Positions 4,119 to 15,497 are shown, counted from the whole stretch's first letter. The stretch is 61,627 nt of DNA, filler included, from Porpidia crustulata (GCA_964255105.1; 12 parts of 12 records of this genome joined end to end with filler, not necessarily neighbours in it), one strand, 5' to 3'. Notes: a model not told the origin generated them from the sequence alone. Numbers and translations: made by a program.

Positions 4119-4928
4119 ATGGCGCCAGGAAAAGATAGCAAGAGCAAAGGTGAGAATGTTCTACCCGCGTGTGGTCTCTGAGGTTGGGAAAGGCGGAAGT
4201 CGCTCGAGTACGCTACAAGGACTCGATGAACATGCTCGCTCCAGAAATTGGCAGTTGGACGACAAGCAACCCATATGATGTATAATAAGGAGCTCCAGGA
4301 ACCACTGGCTGACACATTGCATCTCAGGCCCCGTCACCGGCAAGCACAATGCCAAAGCCTCCCTCGCCGCCAAGTCCGCGCTCAAAGGCGTACGTCCCGC
4401 CCTACAAACGATCCCTCATAATTCCAACCGATCGAACTGACTCTCTATGCCAGGTCAACTCCAAAAAAGTCCGCAAAGTGCGCCTCTCGACCACCTTCCA
4501 CCGTCCAAAGACCCTCCAACTCTCGCGCGCCCCCAAATATCCCCGTAAATCCGTACCCCACGAACCCCGCCTCGACCACCACAAGGTCATCATCCACCCG
4601 CTAAACACGGAGAGCGCGATGAAGAAGATTGAAGAGAATAATACGCTGGTGTTTATTTGCGACGTCAAGGCGAATAAGAGGCAGATCAAGGATGCATTGA
4701 AGAAGCTGTACGATGTGGATTGCGTGAATATTAATACTTTGGTCAGGTGCGTTGTCAATTAATTATTTTCTCACTTAGGGTTGTAAAATGGAGTTGGGAT
4801 GGGGGTGTCCTTGGAGGGCTAATGGGTGTATCTGCAATAGACCCGATGGATCGAAGAAGGCTTATGCGAGGCTGACGCCGGACGTGGATGCTTTAGATAT
4901 CGCGGCGACGAAGCTGGCGATTGTTTAG
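4119..4928 (+). CDS. RPL25: 60S ribosomal protein L25 (uL23), 3 introns
   Basis: [94 protein letters not shown], stop TAG 4926-4928. Confidence 0.97.
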
Positions 4929-5068
4929 ATGGTGATTGGGGATGGTGCTCGACGTGTGGCTTTAGTAATCCAAAATCTACAATCGAACACGCAACTCCCC
5001 TAATCCTGAACGAAGAGTGGAGTCCCTAACAACTTACATATGCGGAGCACCCACGCTCTACGCATCTC

Positions 5069-5168
5069 NNNNNNNNNNNNNNNNNNNNNNNNNNNNNNNN
5101 NNNNNNNNNNNNTTAATTAATTAANNNNNNNNNNNNNNNNNNNNNNNNNNNNNNNNNNNNNNNNNNNN
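5069..5168. other. Artificial contig linker 1
   Basis: N44-TTAATTAATTAA-N44, stops in all six frames. Confidence 0.98.
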
Positions 5169-5209
5169 GTTGTGAGGAGCCATTGGCGGGATTGGGTTGG
5201 GATGGTCAT
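5169..5209 (-). CDS. 5' end of a probable NADP-dependent alkenal/prostaglandin reductase-like (MDR) gene, cut by contig edge
   Basis: MTIPTQSRQWLLT resembles the fungal MAPPTxTRQWILANKP start; TATAAA-like box about 90 bp upstream. Confidence 0.45.
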
Positions 5210-6778
5210 CTTGATGGGTGCTTGCAGGCTAGGAGATGGTGATTGTCTGAGGAATGAGTTTGGTTTTACGTCCGAAACCGTTGTTGGGGGGCTTCTTTAT
5301 ACATTTGCGACTGACAGTGACAACATTAATAATGCGATTGACCGAGGTTGAAATTTGGATTGCACAACGTCAGAATCGGCAGGGACGGCCCGGCGCTCCA
5401 GCCCCTTTCGGTATCGTCACGTCTTCGGCCCTCGGTGATTCGCACCTGGCGCTTCAGCGATACCGATTTAGCCCCACTGATTCATGCTCATCCTCAATTG
5501 AATTGTCCAATCCAAGTCCATTGTCGCATTCTCTATGAGATCGCCTCTGATGTTGATGCTCTGCGGTGGCGCTGATGTAGGCCTGTGCTATCTGTCTATC
5601 TTGATCCAACACACCAACTAGCGACAGATCGGGCCGACTCGGATCTGTAGCATTTGCGTTGTGGATTTTGAGCCTTCGAGGCTGCAGGGTACATCTGGTC
5701 CAGACATGAGTTCAGATTGATATCTTTTGCCTGGTTGATCAAAGTGGAATTGGAACTTACTGTGCGAGCCCAAAGGAAGTGGGCTTCAATATTGCATGAT
5801 CTACTCTCTTACTCTACGAGTTTTATGCTTACTCTGGTACTGCATCTACTTCTACAATGATCTCTATTTCCTACCTCGTAAGGATCCTTAAAAAGACAGC
5901 CTTTACGCAATCTAGCAGACTACAAGCACATCTATCCAATTCCGACTCTAATGTACTTATCCTTCCCGAGCTTCTCTGGACCTAGACGTTTCGCCCACAG
6001 CTTAGTACGCTACGCTATTCAAGTGGCTCAAATGGCAAAGGGGGAAAATTGGGTATCAGGTTTGGTATATCAAGGGGCGATCGTTTCGATTCATTTCATA
6101 CTATATCCGCAACAAAAACCTTTCACATTTCCATATTTTTAGTTGGTGCAACGAAAGGAGTTGGGTATATGACCCCCTGGTTAACCTGTTGTTTACTTTC
6201 CTATAGTAATATTTTATTATGTCAATTATCGCCGGTGGCCCAGCCCAATAGTCCTTTGATATTAAGAACAACAAGATACATTGGGGCTGACGAAGGGATA
6301 ATTTTTACATTCCATTATGCAAGTCGCAATAGAGACGGACGATTGGCATTTTCCAGCTGTACACTCAACGAAGCGTTTGAAACTTTGTCAACCCAGACCA
6401 CTCGCTGTAGAAACTGCGGAGAGTATCAGATATAGGGTGTCAGCAGGCTTGCTAACCTATTAAGTTTGAGTTAGGTAGGTAGACGGAGCTTAAAGAAGGT
6501 GGCATCGGTGGAGTCGCGACAATTCGTTCATATTACCTTACTACTGAGATGAAGTCTCTTTCCCGGGTTTTCGCTAAGAGCCGGTTTCCCCAATGATACG
6601 AGATGTTCTTTCGATCCCTGTGAAGAAGGCATACCTTGAGCTTCTCGAATGCCATTACGAGTCACGCACATCTCACCTGATTGTTTCGCGTCTTGTATGT
6701 GGTAAGTTCTATCCCACAAGCCGAGCTTCTGTAGTAGCTTACGCTAGAACTTTGTTTGTAGCTTAAGGCCGTTCTCAG

Positions 6779-7742
6779 TACAGTGAAAACAAGTTTGGAA
6801 CCTTTGCAAGCCTTCGAGTTGGTACAATAGCCTTTGACAAGCCCATCGTACGTTTACCTCTTATATTCTACCCCACTGGAACATATAAACTGATTATCGC
6901 TACTACATATCAAGATTTCTCTACAAATCTATTTTCACTAGATTTGTCGGCCCTAGAAGTACCGTTTCGAGGTCCGCCAAGACTTCCTATGCCAAATTCT
7001 CAAGTTTTTCGAAAAGGCTCTGGATAGCAGCTTCAAAGTGAAAGCAGGCGAAGTTCCATTCCTTAAACAACGCGAAACGACTATCAGATACTGTCTCTAC
7101 TGGCTTTATACAGGCCAGCTTGATGGGTTCTTCCGCTCAAAAGCGATGAAGCCCACTCGCTGAGAATTGAAGGTTATGATAATGAAGGAGCAGACGGCGC
7201 TGTATGCGGCTCTACGTGAAGAGATCATTCCTTATTACCTTTACCAAAAACTCAGTTGCGGAGGTAGCACTGGATTATGTTGCATTTCGAGACTTTCTTT
7301 TGACGAGGTCATTAGTCTGTACATGCTGTCTAACGTCCATCAATTAAAGGCCTCAAGGATCAAGTTGTAGCACGAAAGGTCATGATCTATGGCGGATCAG
7401 TTCTTCGTGAAGCTGGTCGCCTTTCCTAGGGGGACACATATTCCAGAAGAAGTGCTCAATTACCAGATCCAGTCTTCAGCATCGATCTCGCCTGAGAGAA
7501 TATACCGTATGGTTCCATTCTGCGAGAAAGTTGTAGATTCTGGAGCGGAGCTCACTGGAGAAGCGCTAAACCACGATTTCCTTCCGCATACACACGCCTA
7601 TCGAATCTACGTACTCAATCAGTTGATAGCGCCCGATTGGAAAGAAGAAGTTTCACTATGCGAGTTCCATACGCATGACCAACCATGCTTCGAGACGGTG
7701 ATAAACTATGGAGAAAGAGGGACACGGAATGGAGCTAAATGA
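6779..7742 (+). pseudogene. Degenerate BTB/POZ-family gene, tandem paralog of 8124-9148
   Basis: Frameshifted pieces align with the neighbour: FGTFASLRVG~WGLLITVRVG; VISLYMLSNVHQ/KGLKDQVV~MVALYALAEFLQVRGLKDQII; PDWKEEVSLCEFHTHDQPC~TDWSYAAVCNFHDHDAEC. Confidence 0.7.
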
Positions 7743-8123
7743 ATATACCGGTTTAAAGCTTTGTGGTCATATTGAAGATGCCAAAGCTGCAAATCATGCT
7801 GATCAGCCCTAGAGAACTTACAGGCATCTTGTATTATTTTTGAATTATTGTTAGTTCTATGCTTTCATAAACAACACACCCCACCCCCTAGCTTGATTTG
7901 CTCAATGTATATTGTAGCCAAATATGGACATCAACACTGCGTGTTCAATAGCGTCTGCAATTGCGTTGCAGCACCAATATCAGGTGGCCCAGTGCCTACC
8001 GCCAAAGTTTCACCAGCGACAGCTTTGTTACGCATTGCTCAAGTTGTCACAAAGGCCTTTGGAATTCATTCATCTCCACGAACTCCTCCTTCCCTCCTGC
8101 AATCGATCCTTAACTTCGAAACA

Positions 8124-9148
8124 ATGCAGCAGCTCATCATGGATCAGTCAACTGTGGAACAAGGCGCCGCAGAAGTACCAAGCAAGGATCAGGGCTTCGC
8201 GGATCCACCGTAAGCCGATAGTCTACCTAGACACTACAAAAATGAGCCTGTAAAGAATTTTTAAGTAATCATTTTCTTAGCTTCGTTTGGGGGTTGCTTA
8301 TCACTGTTCGTGTCGGTCCGAACAGAGAGTCCTTCCATGTACATAAGGATCTTATAGGCCAGACGTCGGCCTTTTTTCAAAATGCTTGCAAAGGCGGCTT
8401 CAAGGAAGCAGATGGCATTATAAACCTACCAGGGCAGGAGCCGAAGATTTTCAAGCACTTCATTTACTGGCTTTACACGGGTAAAATCAGAGGATACTAC
8501 TATCCACCATCTTTAAGACCTACCATCAAGGAATTGAAGGTCGCTGCGAACGAAGTCCTCGAACTCAGCGACAAGGAAACGCTGGCAGACCTCGATAACG
8601 ATGATCCTGCAGGGCTGGCATTGAATCTGGCAAATTATCGCGACGTTCCATTACCTGCCATGGTAGCTCTGTATGCCTTGGCCGAATTTCTACAGGTCCG
8701 CGGATTGAAAGATCAGATAATTACTTCGCTGGCATTTGTCTACAGCTATAACAATATCGATAGGCCGAAAGAAGCATATGTCCTTTTCTGGGAAATCTCC
8801 AACTCTACGAAAGAACTAAAGCCAGGATGGCTTATGACTCCAGCTAAGGGTATCAACATGGCATGAAATATGCTGCCTCGCGGCTGCCACCTCCGGCGGC
8901 TACTTTTGGTACACTTCTGCGATAATGCGCTCACTCTGAAAGTAGAAGAGGGTGGAGAGACTTACAATCCCGCTTTCATGGAGGAAGCTTTTAGAGTCAT
9001 GGCTGGTCGTTGGTACGAAGATAGCGGTTTTACTGATTGGTCGTACGCAGCTGTCTGCAACTTCCACGATCACGACGCTGAATGTCCACTGGCTCGAAAA
9101 GACAAACTCACAATACCTTATTTTTCAGACGAGAGATATCTTGACTAA
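8124..9148 (+). pseudogene. BTB/POZ domain protein with one in-frame TGA (8864-8866); one intron 8210-8280
   Basis: ITVRVGP..ESFHVHKDLI..SAFFQNAC.GGFKEA..INLP..EPKIF..FIYWLYTG; ORFs 8294-8866 and 8870-9148 are in the same frame; C-terminal C.FH.H motif. Confidence 0.8.
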
Positions 9149-10234
9149 TCTGGAAGAATGGTCCATTGTGGGTTATTTGCTCTGCGGCCATGGTCGCAAT
9201 AGAATTGTGCAATCTGGGCAAAAGATTCCGAAACAGACTCAAATTCACAATACTAAGGTCTCCAAGCTAGGCAGACAGTCCGATACATGAGTTCTTTTAG
9301 ATAGTCGGCCATCTTTCAATCAAATCCGATCTTATAAGTCTGGAAGGAGATTCATTTGATTCACTCCCCTTTACGTGAGCTGCTACGCACACTTCCCTTG
9401 GTTGAAATTGCCGGCCTTCAACTCGCAACTTGAAGCTACAGCGTCTCTGCCTCAATGTGTCAGCAACGTTTTGTGAATCGAAGCTAACGAGTCGCCCGAT
9501 CTCTGCATATTCATATATTGCTTATAATTGATCCTGAGACGTATCTTGCATCTTTCTACGCCCCCACTCTGTCATCCTTTACTTCTCAAACACTCCTTGA
9601 CGCTTGATCGCTTCATGCCTAATCCTGAAATCGAAATTCTTAGAACGCTGAAACCTCAAATTATCGTGCTATCCTACTGCTAAGAGATCAAGATACTCAA
9701 CATGGTGATGGCTCATTCAGCACTGGCACATAGCTAACATTCAGTCAGAGATTGAGGATCTAGCTGACTATTGTTAGACGAGAACAAACCTCTTTCACTA
9801 GTTTTTTGGAACTCTCGGGAATAGATACAACCTATGTGCATACCTAGAAACACGAGACCCATGAGCTCGATATACTTGGTTTGTTAGATCAAAGGGTCTT
9901 CCTTAACACACACGGCTACAGGAAATCTTAATAGCTTCTCGATGCGGATGGAAAAGAAAATCCGCCGGCAAATAACGTTGATAAATAGGAAATATTCGAT
10001 AATAGGAGACTTTAGGCAGACCATGAGCGCGGCTTGTCCAAATTTCCTCATCGTGTATCAAAACCACTAATATCTTCTTCGCATAGTCTATTGAACGATG
10101 TGCTGTGTAGATAGGTAGAGGTGTCTCGATTGTCAAGTTTAACAGAGCGTTCCAAGGTCATCGAGGATGCAGAAGATGCAATACAAGCCCACCCAAAAAG
10201 TTAGCGAGGTTATATCTGGTGATCGTGGCTAATC

Positions 10235-10334
10235 NNNNNNNNNNNNNNNNNNNNNNNNNNNNNNNNNNNNNNNNNNNNTTAATTAATTAANNNNNNNNNN
10301 NNNNNNNNNNNNNNNNNNNNNNNNNNNNNNNNNN
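10235..10334. other. Artificial contig linker 2
   Basis: N44-TTAATTAATTAA-N44. Confidence 0.98.
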
Positions 10335-10461
10335 GGTTGTTTGCTCGCTATGTTTGCTCTCGAAGGCATATTTATCTTGGCATGGTCGTTATTGTAAACG
10401 GCTCTCAAGAGAAAAGAGCCGATCACGATTTTGCGAGCTTGCTGGGAAAGGTAGAGACTAA

Positions 10462-13231
10462 TTACTGCTCGCGCCGTGATGGGCGATGGTCAGCTCTACT
10501 TGATCTGACACGTGGAAGGTCTGATGCCACGATCAACATGTAATTAGTATTCGAAGACCCATCAACGAGTCCGGAACAGCTTACCACGCCTCCTCTCGTC
10601 AAGGATTTTGGGGCTCTCTGCGGGGGCTTCGTTTGCAAATATTTCTAAATTTGAGGGAAGCTGGGCCACTAGCTCTCGTACCACGTACATCCTGAGCTCT
10701 TTCTCTTCGCGCATGTCTTCCTTGATCAGTTTTGCTTTTGCTTCAATCGAGAATTGCTCTCTTCTCTTTGAGCGGATAGATTTGATGATAGTGGATAGAA
10801 ATTCTTCGGAAACCCTGGTACGAGGTAAACCATAACTTGCTTCATCACGAACATAACGCCTCGTCACATCTGTAGCGCCATCGATGGAGAAGGCTATACA
10901 GTAGGACATTTTCTTAGACCAGGCTATTTATTCGTCGGTTATCAGTTTCCTTGTAAGAAAAGTTAAATGTTCGAGGTTACCTTTTGTATACAACGGTGCT
11001 TGGTCCCAAGCCTCTTCACAACAGTCGACATGTATCCACCGTTTCTGATGCTCCGAATACACTTCGGTCCAGACGTGATCTTCTGGGCACCAGACCCAGC
11101 GCACTTTTGCTCCAGCAGCTCGACAAAGTAAGCTGAAACAGTTTGCCCACTCTCCAACTCGTCCTCGCCTTGTATTGAGGAGTGCCCAAGGACTCGAAAT
11201 TCTTGGAAAGCGCTCCCATGATTCACATATAGGATCTACACATTGAAAGAGCTCGACACGTGAAGCGCCATTAGCCATTTCATCGGGGGTCGGAGGGGTC
11301 AGCCCGACTGCCTTAGTTGGAGAGGAACAAACAGGGCAGAACGGGTTATTGACCCAAGAGAAAAAGGATCGTTTGAACCATCTTGAAGACATCAATCATC
11401 AGATCGCATAGTTACTATTGATATTATGCAGTAGAATGTGTCTTACCTCATAATAGCGCGTATTACGAAGTCATGGTATCCCCATAAGGGCTTGCCAGAA
11501 CCATCCAAACTCATTGCAGTAGCCAAATCAAGCTGACTGTCTTCTTCAGCTTGATCATATATCCGATCTAGTGGCAGTAACGCTAACGCTTCGTCAAGAA
11601 GCCCGGGATTCTCGTATTGAAGAGGCGTATCCGACAGTTTGAATAATTGACTCCTAAAAAGGTCTTCCTCCGCCGTCCTGGGCGTTTTGGGAATGACTGA
11701 ACCTTGAGAAGTAGCTGCGAATTTGTATGGTGGTGGCGGGAGCGATGATCGCGGATCTGTAAGTGGAATGAGTGATGACACATGTATTGGAGGATCGCTA
11801 CTGCCGGCTCTGTCTTCAGGGGTAGATGATCCCTCTTTGAAATTATTATTAGCACTTTTCACTGATACAGTCGATTATTGACTTTGATATCTTAATGTAT
11901 ACAAACAAGTTCATCACTCAAGGCCTAAAAGCACGACGTACCGGCTTTACAGTTTCAAATATTAGCTGGATCGTCAACCCAAATTGATAAGAGACTTACG
12001 TTTTGATTTAACATTTTTGATCTCATCTGTCCGCAAACCGATTCCTTTCTCAGATGTTAGCCACTCACTGATGACACAGAAAACTGTTGGCATACGAAGA
12101 TCTTGCGGAGAAATGTCTGAGCCCGTCTTTGTCCACTTCTCCTTCGATTCTATCCAGAAACGATTAGCGCTCAGGGTTTCCGTCGCATCGGTTACAAGAC
12201 CACGTATTCTATGTCCCGAACATCATATTAACGTACCCCTAAGTCCTTGTAACAGCTGAGTGCGAGAGGTTCGGGTTCCACCTTTTTGAGATAAAGACAT
12301 TCCTCGTGATGCATCATATTTCGGCTTAGGTCTTTGGGCCAACATCTGTTCGAATTGATCCTTGAGATCTTTCGCCCAGTGCTTTCCATATCTGCTTATC
12401 GGTGTTGATGGTTCTGCGATATTTTTCGTGGGGGCGATCTTCGTTGAAACAGAACTTGTATCGTTTTCTGAATTGAGGGATTTCGAGGATTTAATATCTC
12501 CAACGACATCTGATACCAAGATCTGTGAGATCAACGAACTTTGATCACCATCTACCTCTTCCAACATCTGATCATACGCTTGCTCCAGGGATGGAACCAG
12601 ATTCATTAGTAGGGTAACATAGAATCGAATACTCTCTGATCCCTCGTCGTCATCTGTGCTCTCTGAAACTTCAGACTCCAAGTCGGACTCCTGCTCGCCC
12701 TCAAGCTTGACCTTTATCAGAGGTAAACAGGTAGATTCTGCACTCTCAATGGACTTTTTGAGCTCATCAACTACTCCTACGGCTTGCCGAAAGGTAGAAC
12801 TAGTGACATCTGCGAGGAATTCTACCATGCTCTATGTTTAGCGAGGACCCAGATTGATCTGATTTCTCAACTATTTTACCTCGAATAATAACTTTGCCTA
12901 AAGTCACTAGACTCCTTAGGACAGAAAGACGAAGGTCCGGATAGGAATTCAGGATCATGTCCAGCTTTCTGTTACGGAAACTTTCACCCCACAAGAAAAG
13001 CCGCCCCAGCTCTTCCGTCAAGTTCTTATCGACTTCATTCCTTGCTTTCCGAGAACGGTCTACGAGTAAGGAGAACAAAGCAATAACATTGACATAGAGA
13101 CCCTCAGCAACTTCATCGCTCCCCGGAACTCGAGTCCCGAGTAGGGAATTTGAACTGAGTTCGGTCATTGATCGAAGGCCTTCATGCAGTGATCCTCGAG
13201 CAATTAGGCGATCAGACCGTTGTAGCAGCAT
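10462..13231 (-). CDS. Fusion protein: uncharacterised N-terminal helical domain plus full PNG1-like (peptide:N-glycanase / transglutaminase-fold) region, catalytic Cys replaced by Val; about 7-8 introns; start 13231 or 13168
   Basis: N-term [46 protein letters not shown]1 motifs [96 protein letters not shown] introns join all pieces in frame. Confidence 0.85.
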
Positions 13232-13626
13232 CTTTCATTCGTCACATGAATAGCTTGCTGGCAATAATTGGCTGATACCTGATGTGTAACAGAAGTCCAA
13301 ATTAAGTGATCGAACGACGAAAGCTCCAAGTTGATTTGACAATTGCCTGCAGTTGCAATAGAGGAACGTTATTGCCAAATGCCAAGGCGCTAAGCCCTGT
13401 AATTGCGCCCAGCTCCCCAACCACAATTCTTCCTCTCTAATTCAAGGCTTCTCGCCTGGTCTTTGCTACCTGAAGACGATGGATGTATGTACATACGCGC
13501 CCAAAGTCGATCATGCTGGTCGGGTTCTTATTTTTGTTCTCGTGCTTTCAGCTTGTTAGCCTCGCCTCATGTGAAAGCCTTGGGGTCAGGTCTTGCGCGA
13601 CCCAGTTGGCAAAGCGCTGAATAAAG

Positions 13627-15397
13627 ATGTCGGGAGCCGAAGTTGTCGCAGGTCTATTCCTTGGTGTACTGCCTCTTGTAATTTCTGCAATTGAGCATTA
13701 TGACGACGTCCTGCGGCCCTTTGTAAGCTATCGGAATTTCACATCAAAAGCACAAAAAATCTACGACGAGCTGGAGACAGAAAAGACCATCTTCCGCACA
13801 GAATGCCAGTTGCTACTGTCTACCGTCGTTGAGCAGAGTACTGTCTCTAGAATGCTTGATAATGTTGACCATTCGTCATGGACCGATAAAGTCGTACGCC
13901 AACGGTTTGCTCGCAAGCTTGGACCCCTGGGGGCAGCATGTTCATCTATAGTTCTCAAGATCAAGAATCAGCTATGTGAGATAGAGAAAAAGTGTGAGGA
14001 GTTTAGTCCTGTTATTTTGATTCCCAAAGAGGTAAGCTCCATATACCACCAGGCGGTTTCACTTTCCTACTGAATAACAGAGCAAAATGACTGAACCTTC
14101 TAGGGAGTTATATTTGGCAACAAAATCTGGCGACATCGGGCGGGTAAGAAATTGAAGTTCGCCTTTTCTGAATCTGGCTTATTGAACTCCATTGTCGAGC
14201 TGGGGAGATTCAATCGGACCTTTTTGACGATAGCAAATCAGATCATACGCCTTGACCGGCCAGTAGCCTCTCCCGTAGATTCCAAGATTCAAGAGCCCAT
14301 CAGTGAAATGAGTCAACAGATTGAAAAGTTCAGAATAATGCAACGAGCGTCACGGCAACTGTACGAAGCTCTAAGTCAAACGTGCCGAGTACACACTGAA
14401 CACATGGCACTACTTTGTATGGATACAAAGTACGCCAAACCCAATGGAACTTCTCGATTCGCAGAGATACAGTTCAAATTATCTTTTACTCACGAGGTCT
14501 CTGGTACTAGTCCCGTATACACATCGCACAAGAATGACGATAGGCCAAATCCAGTACCTTTATCCTTCACACAAGGAGAAGATCAAAATGAAGTCTTGAG
14601 AAGTATGGATACTAACCAGCAGGAGATTCATCCTGTCACAAGTCCGACTAGAAAGCCTCCAAAGCTCTCTGTCTGCAACATCTCACGGTTCGATATCAAG
14701 ACTATCATAATTCGCGAGGTCTCGTCCTCTCAGATAGGGCCACATCAGAACGTTCTATCATCGGAGAATGTGAACCAGATCTCCAACTTCCTTGGGATAC
14801 TCGAGGAAACGGAGTCTTGTAGACTTATCGTCTTGAGCCCCACCACGTCCATCCCTCGCCGTCCTAGCAAGGAAGCCATGTCACTGACACAGCTCGTTGT
14901 ACGGGAGTCTGGGAAGCAACCTTTAGGAGGGATGCCGCAGTACCAGCGCTTACGTCTTGCCAAATATCTTGCATTAGCCATCTTGAAATTCCATGCAACA
15001 CCGTGGCTTGGTGAGAATCTGCAGAGTAAAGATGTAATGTTCAACGACTCGACAATAGCAAGTTCGGATTTTGCTGAGACCTGCATGCTTCCATACTTGC
15101 ATGCTGTGGTGGTGCCACCCAAATCTGAGGGTGTTTCTGTCTACGATGGTGAGGGGTCTCGATCTTCGCTTTCGAGAATGAGTGTTGCTCCCAATACGCT
15201 GCTCTTCAATCTTGGAGTAATGCTTCTGGAATTAGCTTATGGCGCACCCTTCAATACCCTACGACAACCCGAAGATGCTGCAGCATCTCCAGATAATGGA
15301 CTGGCGGATTTTGTCACTGCACGAAGGCTGGCTGACAGCGTGGGTATGTCTCTTGGCTCCACCTTTGCTTCGATCATCAGAAAGTGTCTTCGGTGTG
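13627..15397 (+). CDS. HeLo-like N-terminal domain plus kinase-C-lobe-like (DUF7580-type) protein; intron 14032-14103; 3' end cut by contig edge
   Basis: MSGAEVVAGLFLGVLPLVISAIEHY start; C-terminal RLRLAKYLALAILKFHATPWL..SKDVMF, NTLLFNLGVMLLELAY, G.TFASIIRKCLRC. Confidence 0.82.
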
Positions 15398-15497
15398 NNN
15401 NNNNNNNNNNNNNNNNNNNNNNNNNNNNNNNNNNNNNNNNNTTAATTAATTAANNNNNNNNNNNNNNNNNNNNNNNNNNNNNNNNNNNNNNNNNNNN
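15398..15497. other. Artificial contig linker 3
   Basis: N44-TTAATTAATTAA-N44. Confidence 0.98.

Follow-up and report, generated by a model that had tools for sequence, protein, structure and literature searches.

A head-to-head gene pair in Porpidia crustulata belongs to a conserved two-gene module combining a kinase-like DUF7580 protein with a partner of interchangeable C termini

We analyzed a window of 61,627 bases from Porpidia crustulata (GCA_964255105.1), which consists of 12 contigs of ~5 kb joined by spacers of the form N44-TTAATTAATTAA-N44 (5069-5168, 10235-10334, 15398-15497 and so on); adjoining contigs are not necessarily neighbors in the genome. One of these contigs (10335..15397; 5,063 bp), bounded on both sides by N/TTAATTAATTAA spacers, carries two divergently transcribed genes. 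The gene on the plus strand encodes an N-terminal helical domain followed by a domain of the Pfam family DUF7580, and the gene on the minus strand encodes a helical N-terminal module fused to the peptide:N-glycanase-like protein PNG1. Together they represent a conserved, head-to-head, co-diverging two-gene module in which a conserved N-terminal module of the partner is combined with interchangeable C termini. A first-pass annotation of this DNA had described a divergent pair of an MLKL-like gene and a PNG1-fusion gene located on one contig, and our analysis confirms this overall observation. Positions 10360-15384 are covered by a single 5,025-nt Logan contig of one public run with zero differences. 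By tblastn, the remaining 11 contigs of the window contain no additional copy of either gene. All splice sites reported here for both genes were inferred from the sequence and from homology.

The plus-strand gene begins with the ATG at 13627. Its first exon (13627..14031, +; plusN) is an open reading frame (ORF) followed by a GTAAGC splice donor at 14032. It encodes an N-terminal helical domain of ~135 amino acids, which opens with a hydrophobic helix (MSGAEVVAGLFLGVLPLVISAIEHY) and is 69-71% identical to its counterpart in a sister locus, L001. A 72-nt intron (14032..14103, +), read from the sequence as GTAAGC...ACTGAAC...TAG, separates exon 1 from exon 2 (14104..15397, +), and past this intron the reading frame and a database homologue, P0002, resume together at GVIFG/GIMFG. 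Exon 2 encodes two long helices and a kinase-like domain and is cut by the contig end at 15397; by comparison to P0002, the protein misses its last ~46 residues. Exon 2 matches DUF7580 (PF24476) with an E value of 1.2e-11 and 45.3 bits, the cut-off being 27. A word-indexed search with exon 2 yielded 42 relatives, all 42 of which carry DUF7580 and the best of which is 48% identical across the whole exon. Relatives with named sources come from Exophiala, Endocarpon, Circinaria, and Acephala, and full-length relatives comprise about 630-650 amino acids. Overall, a DUF7580 match was present in 43/43 family proteins and in 38 of the 39 ORFs from related loci. The family is absent from the literature texts that we searched.

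The minus-strand gene starts at the first ATG of exon A (12880..13231, -; ATG at 13231), an ORF encoding a conserved helical N-terminal domain, here termed minA. A putative 58-nt intron (12822..12879, -; GTAAAA...TAG), obtained by enumerating frame-preserving GT..AG introns and with putative borders, leads to exon B (12238..12821, -), which holds a second conserved stretch (minB), an acidic linker, and the canonical N terminus of PNG1 in one frame. Exon B is followed by a putative intron of ~400 nt (11838..12237, -), read from the sequence as GTACGT...GCTAAT...GAG, the borders of which are also putative and which is absent from L001. Exon D (11444..11837, -) was located by tblastn with nine PNG1 proteins and encodes the N-terminal region of PNG1. 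Exon E (10984..11384, -) encodes the transglutaminase core with the motif RGRVGEW (Pfam Transglut_core, E 6.6e-15), and exon F (10562..10927, -; stop codon at 10562-10564) encodes the C-terminal Rad4-like part (Pfam Rad4, E 4e-7, 30.2 bits, cut-off 27). The nine PNG1 queries together covered approximately residues 42-430, with starts between 42 and 99 depending on the query and E values down to 4e-110. Between the two start codons lie 395 bp (13232..13626), presumably a shared promoter; the first-pass estimate of ~400-460 bp agrees with the distances of 395 and 458 bp that result from placing the minus-strand start at 13231 and 13168, respectively. An 82-codon open frame (11977-12222, -) lies inside the putative ~400-nt intron; it has neither a Pfam match nor a counterpart in L001 and may be a mini-exon, an insertion, or a chance occurrence.

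The proposal that the minus-strand gene fuses an unannotated helical N-terminal domain to an entire PNG1 was borne out. In addition to the Transglut_core and Rad4 matches, the canonical PNG1 N terminus (residues 4-39 of the Chaenotheca protein P0057, E 3e-4) maps to 12432-12331, within an open frame (12831-12226) that also holds the upstream acidic and helical region of the minus-strand protein. The sister locus L001 contains an uninterrupted 321-codon ORF that runs from the minB stretch through DWAKDLRVLFEQ, the PNG1 N terminus, into the PNG1 core, and its residues 174-216 span the ~400-nt gap of the window without an intron. Based on these frames, the fusion of the N-terminal module with PNG1 is real at the DNA level and conserved, because the two parts share one frame in the window and one 321-codon ORF in L001. 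The N-terminal extension of ~300 amino acids is unusual, since all lengths given for the best 120 of 1429 PNG1 relatives fall between 280 and 553 amino acids. The lack of any such extension among these 120 proteins, together with the putative splicing of exons A, B, and D, would also be expected if an ordinary PNG1 gene merely stood beside two unrelated neighbors and the fusion were a read-through of a short intergenic stretch. The single frame that joins the upstream region to the PNG1 N terminus in the window and the continuous ORF in L001 argue against such a chance arrangement, as do the recurrence and the co-divergence of the pair described next, and we regard it as very improbable indeed.

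To place the pair in context, metagenome contigs were scanned with an alignment of the DUF7580 family, which gave 80 loci, each including flanks of up to 10 kb, all oriented with the DUF7580 gene on the plus strand. Near-duplicate loci were grouped at nucleotide identities of at least 85% into 39 clusters, 26 of which have ~0.9 kb or more of upstream DNA; in the other 13 of the 39 the upstream DNA is too short to judge the presence of a partner. Linkage was counted outward from the DUF7580 loci. With tblastn and the exons of the window, a minA-like exon was detected a few hundred bases upstream on the opposite strand in 29/80 loci, eight of which also contain minB and all PNG1 exons. A hidden Markov model (HMM) built from 86 minA sequences detected minA in 55 of the 80 loci, and all 56 matches lie on the minus strand upstream of the DUF7580 gene, with none elsewhere in up to 20 kb. 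The earlier reading had been staked on linkage of homologues elsewhere, and we observed that a partner is clearly present (E<=1e-5) in 21 of the 26 judgeable clusters and weakly recognizable in 3, with none in the remaining 2. The three weak cases are L052 (E 0.02), L065 (E 0.007), and L053, the last with a minB-like match and the motif LSRLCLWASSI. Among the 21 clear clusters, minA lies within ~1.1 kb of the DUF7580 N-terminal domain in 19 and 2.1-2.6 kb away in 2, in one of these as part of a long open frame that comes as close as ~360 bp. In most clusters the spacing between the two domain matches is about 250-890 bp. No minA or minB partner was detectable in several kb of upstream DNA of L021 (DUF7580 gene at 8882-10753) or of the group formed by L055, L059, L060, and L061; these may be orphan executors, or their partner may have diverged beyond detection.

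The two genes also diverge together. Distance matrices of minA and of the DUF7580 N-terminal domain, compared for 23 pairs, gave a Mantel r of 0.81, a value not reached in any of 5000 permutations, and nearest neighbors agreed in 15/23 pairs. Because the distances of both genes correlate, the pair is inherited and duplicated as a unit. In an all-versus-all comparison of ORFs of at least 90 amino acids from 24 representative loci, only two families recur, namely DUF7580 (24/24) and the partner (21/24), and these loci contain no third recurring gene. As many as five different clusters occur in contig sets with a common name prefix, which suggests several paralogous pairs per genome, a point that the metagenomic origin of the contigs keeps short of proof. 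This recurrence of a head-to-head partner in 21-24 of the 26 clusters, with divergence matching that of the DUF7580 gene, argues against chance adjacency.

Several loci show irregularities. Two copies of cluster 1, the cluster of the sister locus, contain a DUF7580 gene (L004 and L005, both at 5072-6275) without the stretch matching residues 38-87 of exon 2 of the window, a shortfall equivalent to a gap of ~220 bp relative to L001 (10039-10261), which may be a deletion allele or mark a pseudogene. The minA domain is split across two reading frames in L009 (8673-8937), and the DUF7580 N-terminal domain is split in the same manner in L015 and L033 (both at 9538-9899) and in L013 (574-932), pointing to frameshifts, additional short introns, or errors of assembly.

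In contrast to the conserved N-terminal module, the C termini of the partners differ widely, as had been anticipated. When 90 ORFs on the minus strand downstream of minA were scanned with Pfam, the parts identified within the same ORF as the N-terminal module were PNG1 (in L001, for cluster 1, as in the window), TPR_10/TPR_12 repeats in a 688-amino-acid ORF with minB (L010), and KilA-N (L052). In L075, a single ORF of 1,276 codons (4778-8605, -) has a minA-like start, ~450 unannotated residues, an NPHP3_N/NACHT domain, and ankyrin repeats. Judged by this domain order, the partner in L075 is a fungal NOD-like receptor (NLR) with an N-terminal domain outside Pfam, positioned head to head with a DUF7580 gene. 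Adjoining ORFs encode C2H2-type zinc fingers (L014, L037), RhoGEF (L032), KilA-N (L054), and possibly a bromodomain (L022), and many partner C termini have no Pfam match. Among the 16 longest of 85 database proteins containing minA, a PHD finger was recognized in P0211 and a Clr5 domain in P0235; the minA match of these long proteins is N-terminal, its first residue ranging from 27 to 86. The pair had been classified as a non-NLR system. This holds for the window, in which no exon of either gene encodes NACHT, NB-ARC, or TPR, ankyrin, or WD repeats, but not for the family as a whole, given the NACHT-ankyrin partner of L075.

The assortment of C termini raises the possibility of a selfish toxin-antidote or mobile cassette, in which the DUF7580 gene, the promoter, and the minA and minB exons duplicate upstream of arbitrary host genes and the C termini are captured bystanders rather than sensors. 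The fused parts do resemble an arbitrary sample of host genes, PNG1 is joined from about its fourth residue and thus as a whole gene, nearly all loci share the exon border that terminates minA, and the unit duplicates whole. However, no repeats, transposase, or mobile-element gene recur beside the pair, and the PNG1 fusion has been kept in lineages that share just ~48% identity in their DUF7580 proteins, indicating that it is old and maintained. Moreover, close paralogues keep related C termini, for example, of the zinc-finger type in L014 and L025, the match in L025 being weak. We consider a cassette of bystander genes to be quite improbable.

The N-terminal module shared by the paralogous partners, minA plus minB, comprises ~200 amino acids; in related loci, the ORF following minA retains minB with weak conservation. 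An exhaustive HMMER search with minA recovered 85 database relatives, compared to one weak match in a word-based search. No Pfam family accounts for minA: among 56 members, the best matches, none of them significant, were to MIT (E 0.0011, 2 members) and HeLo (E 0.045, 1 member). An AlphaFold2 model of exon A has a mean predicted local distance difference test score (pLDDT) of 71.5, with core blocks at 85-91, and contains helices at residues 38-62, 69-83, 89-96, and 98-121. Foldseek returned nothing for this model at E<=1e-3, and the ESM Atlas gave no usable match. In an exhaustive VIA search the best match was a designed helical protein (Z 8.3), and the top ten included N-terminal domains of the plant NLRs MLA13 (residues 2-90; Z 7.5, root-mean-square deviation [rmsd] 2.7, 80 residues aligned), Sw-5b (Z 6.2), and ZAR1 (Z 5.9), all scores in a range that is unreliable for helical bundles. 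A likeness of minA to the coiled-coil domain of plant NLRs is thus possible as a lead from a predicted model. Homology between the two genes of the pair, in the style of het-S/nwd2, was considered and rejected, with hhalign probabilities of 0.2 for minA against DUF7580 and 0.45 for plusN against minA. The shared-motif logic of het-S/nwd2 is not applicable here, because the N-terminal module has no homology to any part of the DUF7580 protein.

With regard to the DUF7580 protein itself, an AlphaFold2 model was made of P0002, the closest full-length relative (48% identical), from an alignment of 42 sequences, rather than of the truncated protein of the window. The model has a mean pLDDT of 74.9 and a predicted template modeling score of 0.60. 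Its N-terminal part contains helices at residues 2-23, 25-36, 38-64, and 88-125, followed by two long helices (167-213 and 223-251) and a mixed beta/alpha domain that extends to residue 626. A low-confidence stretch at residues 135-161 falls at the position of the intron in the window and is probably an unspliced intron in the database gene call; residues ~146-170 of P0002 have a pLDDT <50 and are absent from the spliced frame of the window. Metagenome-derived gene calls of the family are partly unspliced, because P0002 seems to read through an intron that matches 14032-14103.

A comparison of the P0002 model with solved structures using Foldseek gave 17 matches at E<=1e-3, all of them kinases or pseudokinases, including Pan3 (E 4.5e-4) and IRAK4; the MLKL pseudokinase (6bwk) was listed at rank 29 with an E value of 1.2e-3. 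In the VIA search, the model scored Z 10.1 with ROS1 (rmsd 3.8 Å over 177 aligned residues, model residues 247-623), Z 10.0 with BRAF, and Z 9.2-9.6 with FGFR4, FAK, VEGFR2, and TrkA, and 434 of 1000 chains reached a Z of at least 8. A profile search of PDB sequences found weak matches to three plant receptor kinases (E 1.2-2.3), aligned at the catalytic loop and the subdomain-IX helix. At the place expected for HRD..K..N, mapped by reading of the alignment, the family consensus is FHATPWL..SW.S.D, and the VAIK, HRD, and DFG motifs were not found. Based on the model, the DUF7580 domain is kinase-like in fold, lacks the kinase motifs, and is not an active kinase. The original description of a degenerate kinase C-lobe slightly understated the likeness, in that the match of the P0002 model also takes in part of the N-lobe.

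The DUF7580 domain also occurs behind other N-terminal domains. In the ESM Atlas, clusters near the family combine DUF7580 with a preceding Pfam HeLo domain in 27-98% of their members, and near the family member P0008 it follows Peptidase_S8 in 96% of a 70-member cluster and PNP_UDP_1 in 96% of a 105-member cluster. HeLo, Peptidase_S8, and PNP_UDP_1 commonly form the effector ends of fungal NLRs. The kinase-like DUF7580 domain thus appears to serve generally as the C-terminal module behind effector domains of the fungal NLR type. For the plus-strand protein, a HeLo-like head is plausible on the basis of its hydrophobic first helix and the four main helices predicted for P0002. Taken together, the predicted structure supports the domain order of MLKL, that is, an N-terminal helical bundle, two long helices, and a degenerate kinase-like domain.

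The PNG1 copy of the minus-strand protein has evolved unusually fast. In a tree of 97 rows, the PNG1 parts of the window and of cluster 1 form a clade (Shimodaira-Hasegawa-like approximate likelihood ratio test, 96), placed weakly beside the PNG1 proteins of Lecanoromycetes, and their branches measure 1.51 and 1.41, respectively, against a median end branch of 0.13. A second comparison used the single contiguous core exon (134 columns), independently of any splice reconstruction. Over this exon, canonical PNG1 proteins are mutually 82% identical at the median (5th percentile, 76.5%), whereas identity to the canonical proteins is 70.9% for the window (maximum, 73.9%) and 69.4% for L001, and the identity between the two fused copies is 65.7%. 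In place of the catalytic Cys, the window has Val (RGRVGEW) and cluster 1 has Ala (RGRAGEW; L001, L004, L006, and L009). These sequence comparisons fit a duplicated copy under altered constraint. A role of PNG1 as a decoy or bait would be compatible with a fast-evolving, catalytically dead copy, features that prove nothing by themselves.

How might such a pair work? The partner N-terminal module would dock onto the DUF7580 protein, and binding or sensing by the variable C-terminal domain would then be coupled to the release or the restraint of the helical head. MLKL and HeLo/HELL proteins suggest by analogy that this head may act on membranes, and the C-terminal domains, PNG1 among them, would serve as inputs or baits. 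As a whole, we give this sensor/executor interpretation slightly less than an even chance. A more specific version would make the pair a new fungal two-component class in cell death or immunity, in which a protein of MLKL architecture is controlled through a helical adaptor, possibly like the coiled-coil of a plant NLR, that is carried on interchangeable sensors. Some of these sensors would be true NLRs, and others would be whole host proteins (PNG1, transcription factors, or RhoGEF) that bait effectors of pathogens or mycoviruses. This version we put forward as a tentative proposal that is rather unlikely in its full form.

A number of observations weigh against a sensor/executor pair of this kind. 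Pfam models of kinases (Pkinase, PK_Tyr_Ser-Thr) matched none of the 43 family proteins and 39 locus ORFs at E<=0.1 or E<=0.05. For the HeLo-like N-terminal helix proposed in the first-pass annotation, the hydrophobic first helix and the four predicted helices stand; membership in the family finds no support from Pfam, exon 1 of the window matching no family at E<=0.1, HeLo and HeLo-like (PF14479, PF17111) included. Only 2 of 24 relatives gave matches, both below threshold and both aligned N terminus to N terminus, to PigL_N (E 0.0052; 16.6 versus 27.2 bits) and to HeLo (E 0.0068; 16.7 versus 23.2 bits). A PDB profile search with plusN returned generic helical proteins and listed no HeLo or MLKL entry, and the fold-search lists for P0002 are occupied by matches of the kinase domain (model range 242-626). 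The long branches of the fused PNG1 proteins were flagged as a possible long-branch artefact. In addition, Val at the catalytic position is not by itself a sign of a decoy, because 40 of 92 canonical PNG1 proteins share it (the others have C in 46 cases, A in 2, S in 1, and G in 1; 2 proteins lack the motif). Many partner C termini are DNA- or chromatin-binding, which is as compatible with a regulatory module as with a decoy. Finally, four copies of cluster 1 from different contig sets, aligned over 13.4 kb, are 98.4-99.7% identical in the pair compared to 97.2% in the flanks, in a sample that is small and comes from a relative rather than from the species of the window itself. These identities reflect purifying selection on the pair and not the hypervariability that marks het loci, and the allorecognition function suggested earlier is disfavored by the lack of high polymorphism.

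Several of these points would be accommodated by a nonimmune regulatory module, in which the DUF7580 protein is a pseudokinase-like scaffold or allosteric regulator and minA/minB docks client proteins such as transcription or chromatin factors, RhoGEF, and PNG1, with no cell death involved. Consistent with such a role, many partner ends are nuclear or DNA-binding (C2H2, KilA-N, PHD, Clr5/chromo, and possibly a bromodomain), the pair shows purifying selection without hypervariability, and HeLo membership of the N-terminal domain is unproven. However, NACHT-ankyrin NLR and TPR partners are typical builds of fungal immune receptors, and in other family members the domains that precede DUF7580 (HeLo, S8 protease, and PNP_UDP_1) are those of fungal NLR effectors. 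The unusually fast evolution of the PNG1 copy and the presence of up to five paralogous clusters under one contig-name prefix, suggesting a multi-copy repertoire, also speak against this reading. We consider a purely regulatory module to be somewhat unlikely.

Compared to vertebrate and plant MLKL, which is described in the accessible part of a review (PMC12881547) as working through a brace and a four-helix bundle (4HB), the P0002 model has the same order of parts, a kinase-like domain without HRD and DFG, and 6bwk among its Foldseek matches. There are also clear differences. No sequence relation to MLKL is detectable, and the best kinase matches are tyrosine kinases and tyrosine kinase-like kinases in general, not MLKL specifically. 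The N-terminal part of the DUF7580 protein is a predicted helical bundle, for which a 4HB or HeLo fold is a candidate. No RIPK3-like activating kinase is encoded nearby here; a non-kinase partner gene is linked instead. The same 2025 review, in the part available, mentions that some HELL domains reside in proteins with kinase or pseudokinase domains (PMC12881547).

Two-gene clusters of HeLo/HELL proteins with amyloid signaling are described in the available text of PMC10197012 and PMC9815663. Similar to het-S/nwd2 and hellp/pnt1, the pair unites a protein with a helical head and a modular receptor, the L075 partner is a NACHT-ankyrin NLR, and some DUF7580 relatives carry a Pfam HeLo domain. 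By contrast, no shared amyloid motif was found here, the head protein ends in a kinase-like rather than a prion-forming domain, and most partners are not NLRs. Gasdermin/protease pairs (rcd-1, het-Q1/het-Q2) are widespread in Ascomycota and combine a putative membrane-attacking protein with a highly variable partner, according to the portion of PMC10197012 that was accessible. The pair studied here likewise links a putative membrane attacker to a partner of highly variable architecture, but contains neither a gasdermin nor a protease; DUF7580 is fused to S8 proteases in other clusters only.

In plants, head-to-head NLR pairs such as RGA4/RGA5 and RRS1/RPS4 carry integrated decoys, and other NLRs act with kinase or pseudokinase adaptors, as in ZAR1-RKS1 and Prf-Pto. 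The pair resembles these in being divergent, in having an extra host-protein domain on one member, and in tying a kinase-like protein genetically to the N-terminal domain of a receptor; unlike them, neither protein of the window is an NLR. The available part of PMC12258605 proposes integrated domains for the NLRs of Sordariales, but not for this pair. Relative to the PNG1 proteins of filamentous ascomycetes, the fused copy shares Transglut_core and Rad4, a match from about residue 4, and the replacement of the catalytic Cys seen in 40/92 canonical proteins, and it differs in its ~300-residue N-terminal extension, absent from the best 120 of 1429 relatives, and in its much faster evolution.

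The pairing is not described in the main text, as far as accessible, of reviews of fungal cell death and surveys of NLRs (PMC12881547, PMC10197012, PMC12258605, PMC9815663); the supplementary tables of the NLR surveys (PMC9815663, PMC12258605) lay outside the search and may list the N-terminal domain among unannotated NLR N termini. A literature search found no paper combining PNG1 with heterokaryon incompatibility. The pair would represent a new variation on the theme of fungal two-gene clusters in cell death or immunity.

Fungal regulated cell death is encoded in small clusters, with HeLo proteins linked to NLRs and gasdermins linked to proteases. If the sensor/executor interpretation is correct, the pair would add a third type of cluster, consisting of an MLKL-like pseudokinase protein and partners whose variable ends name candidate inputs. 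The activators of fungal regulated cell-death systems are regarded as a major open question, as stated in the accessible part of PMC12881547, and candidate inputs would be PNG1, zinc-finger and KilA-N factors, RhoGEF, and TPR or NACHT-ankyrin sensors. The analysis provides a first genomic context for DUF7580 and identifies minA/minB as a new unannotated domain that is N-terminal in at least one NLR. With ~5 kb and one presumed shared promoter, the pair is compact, and thus it can be cloned and its proposed function tested directly.

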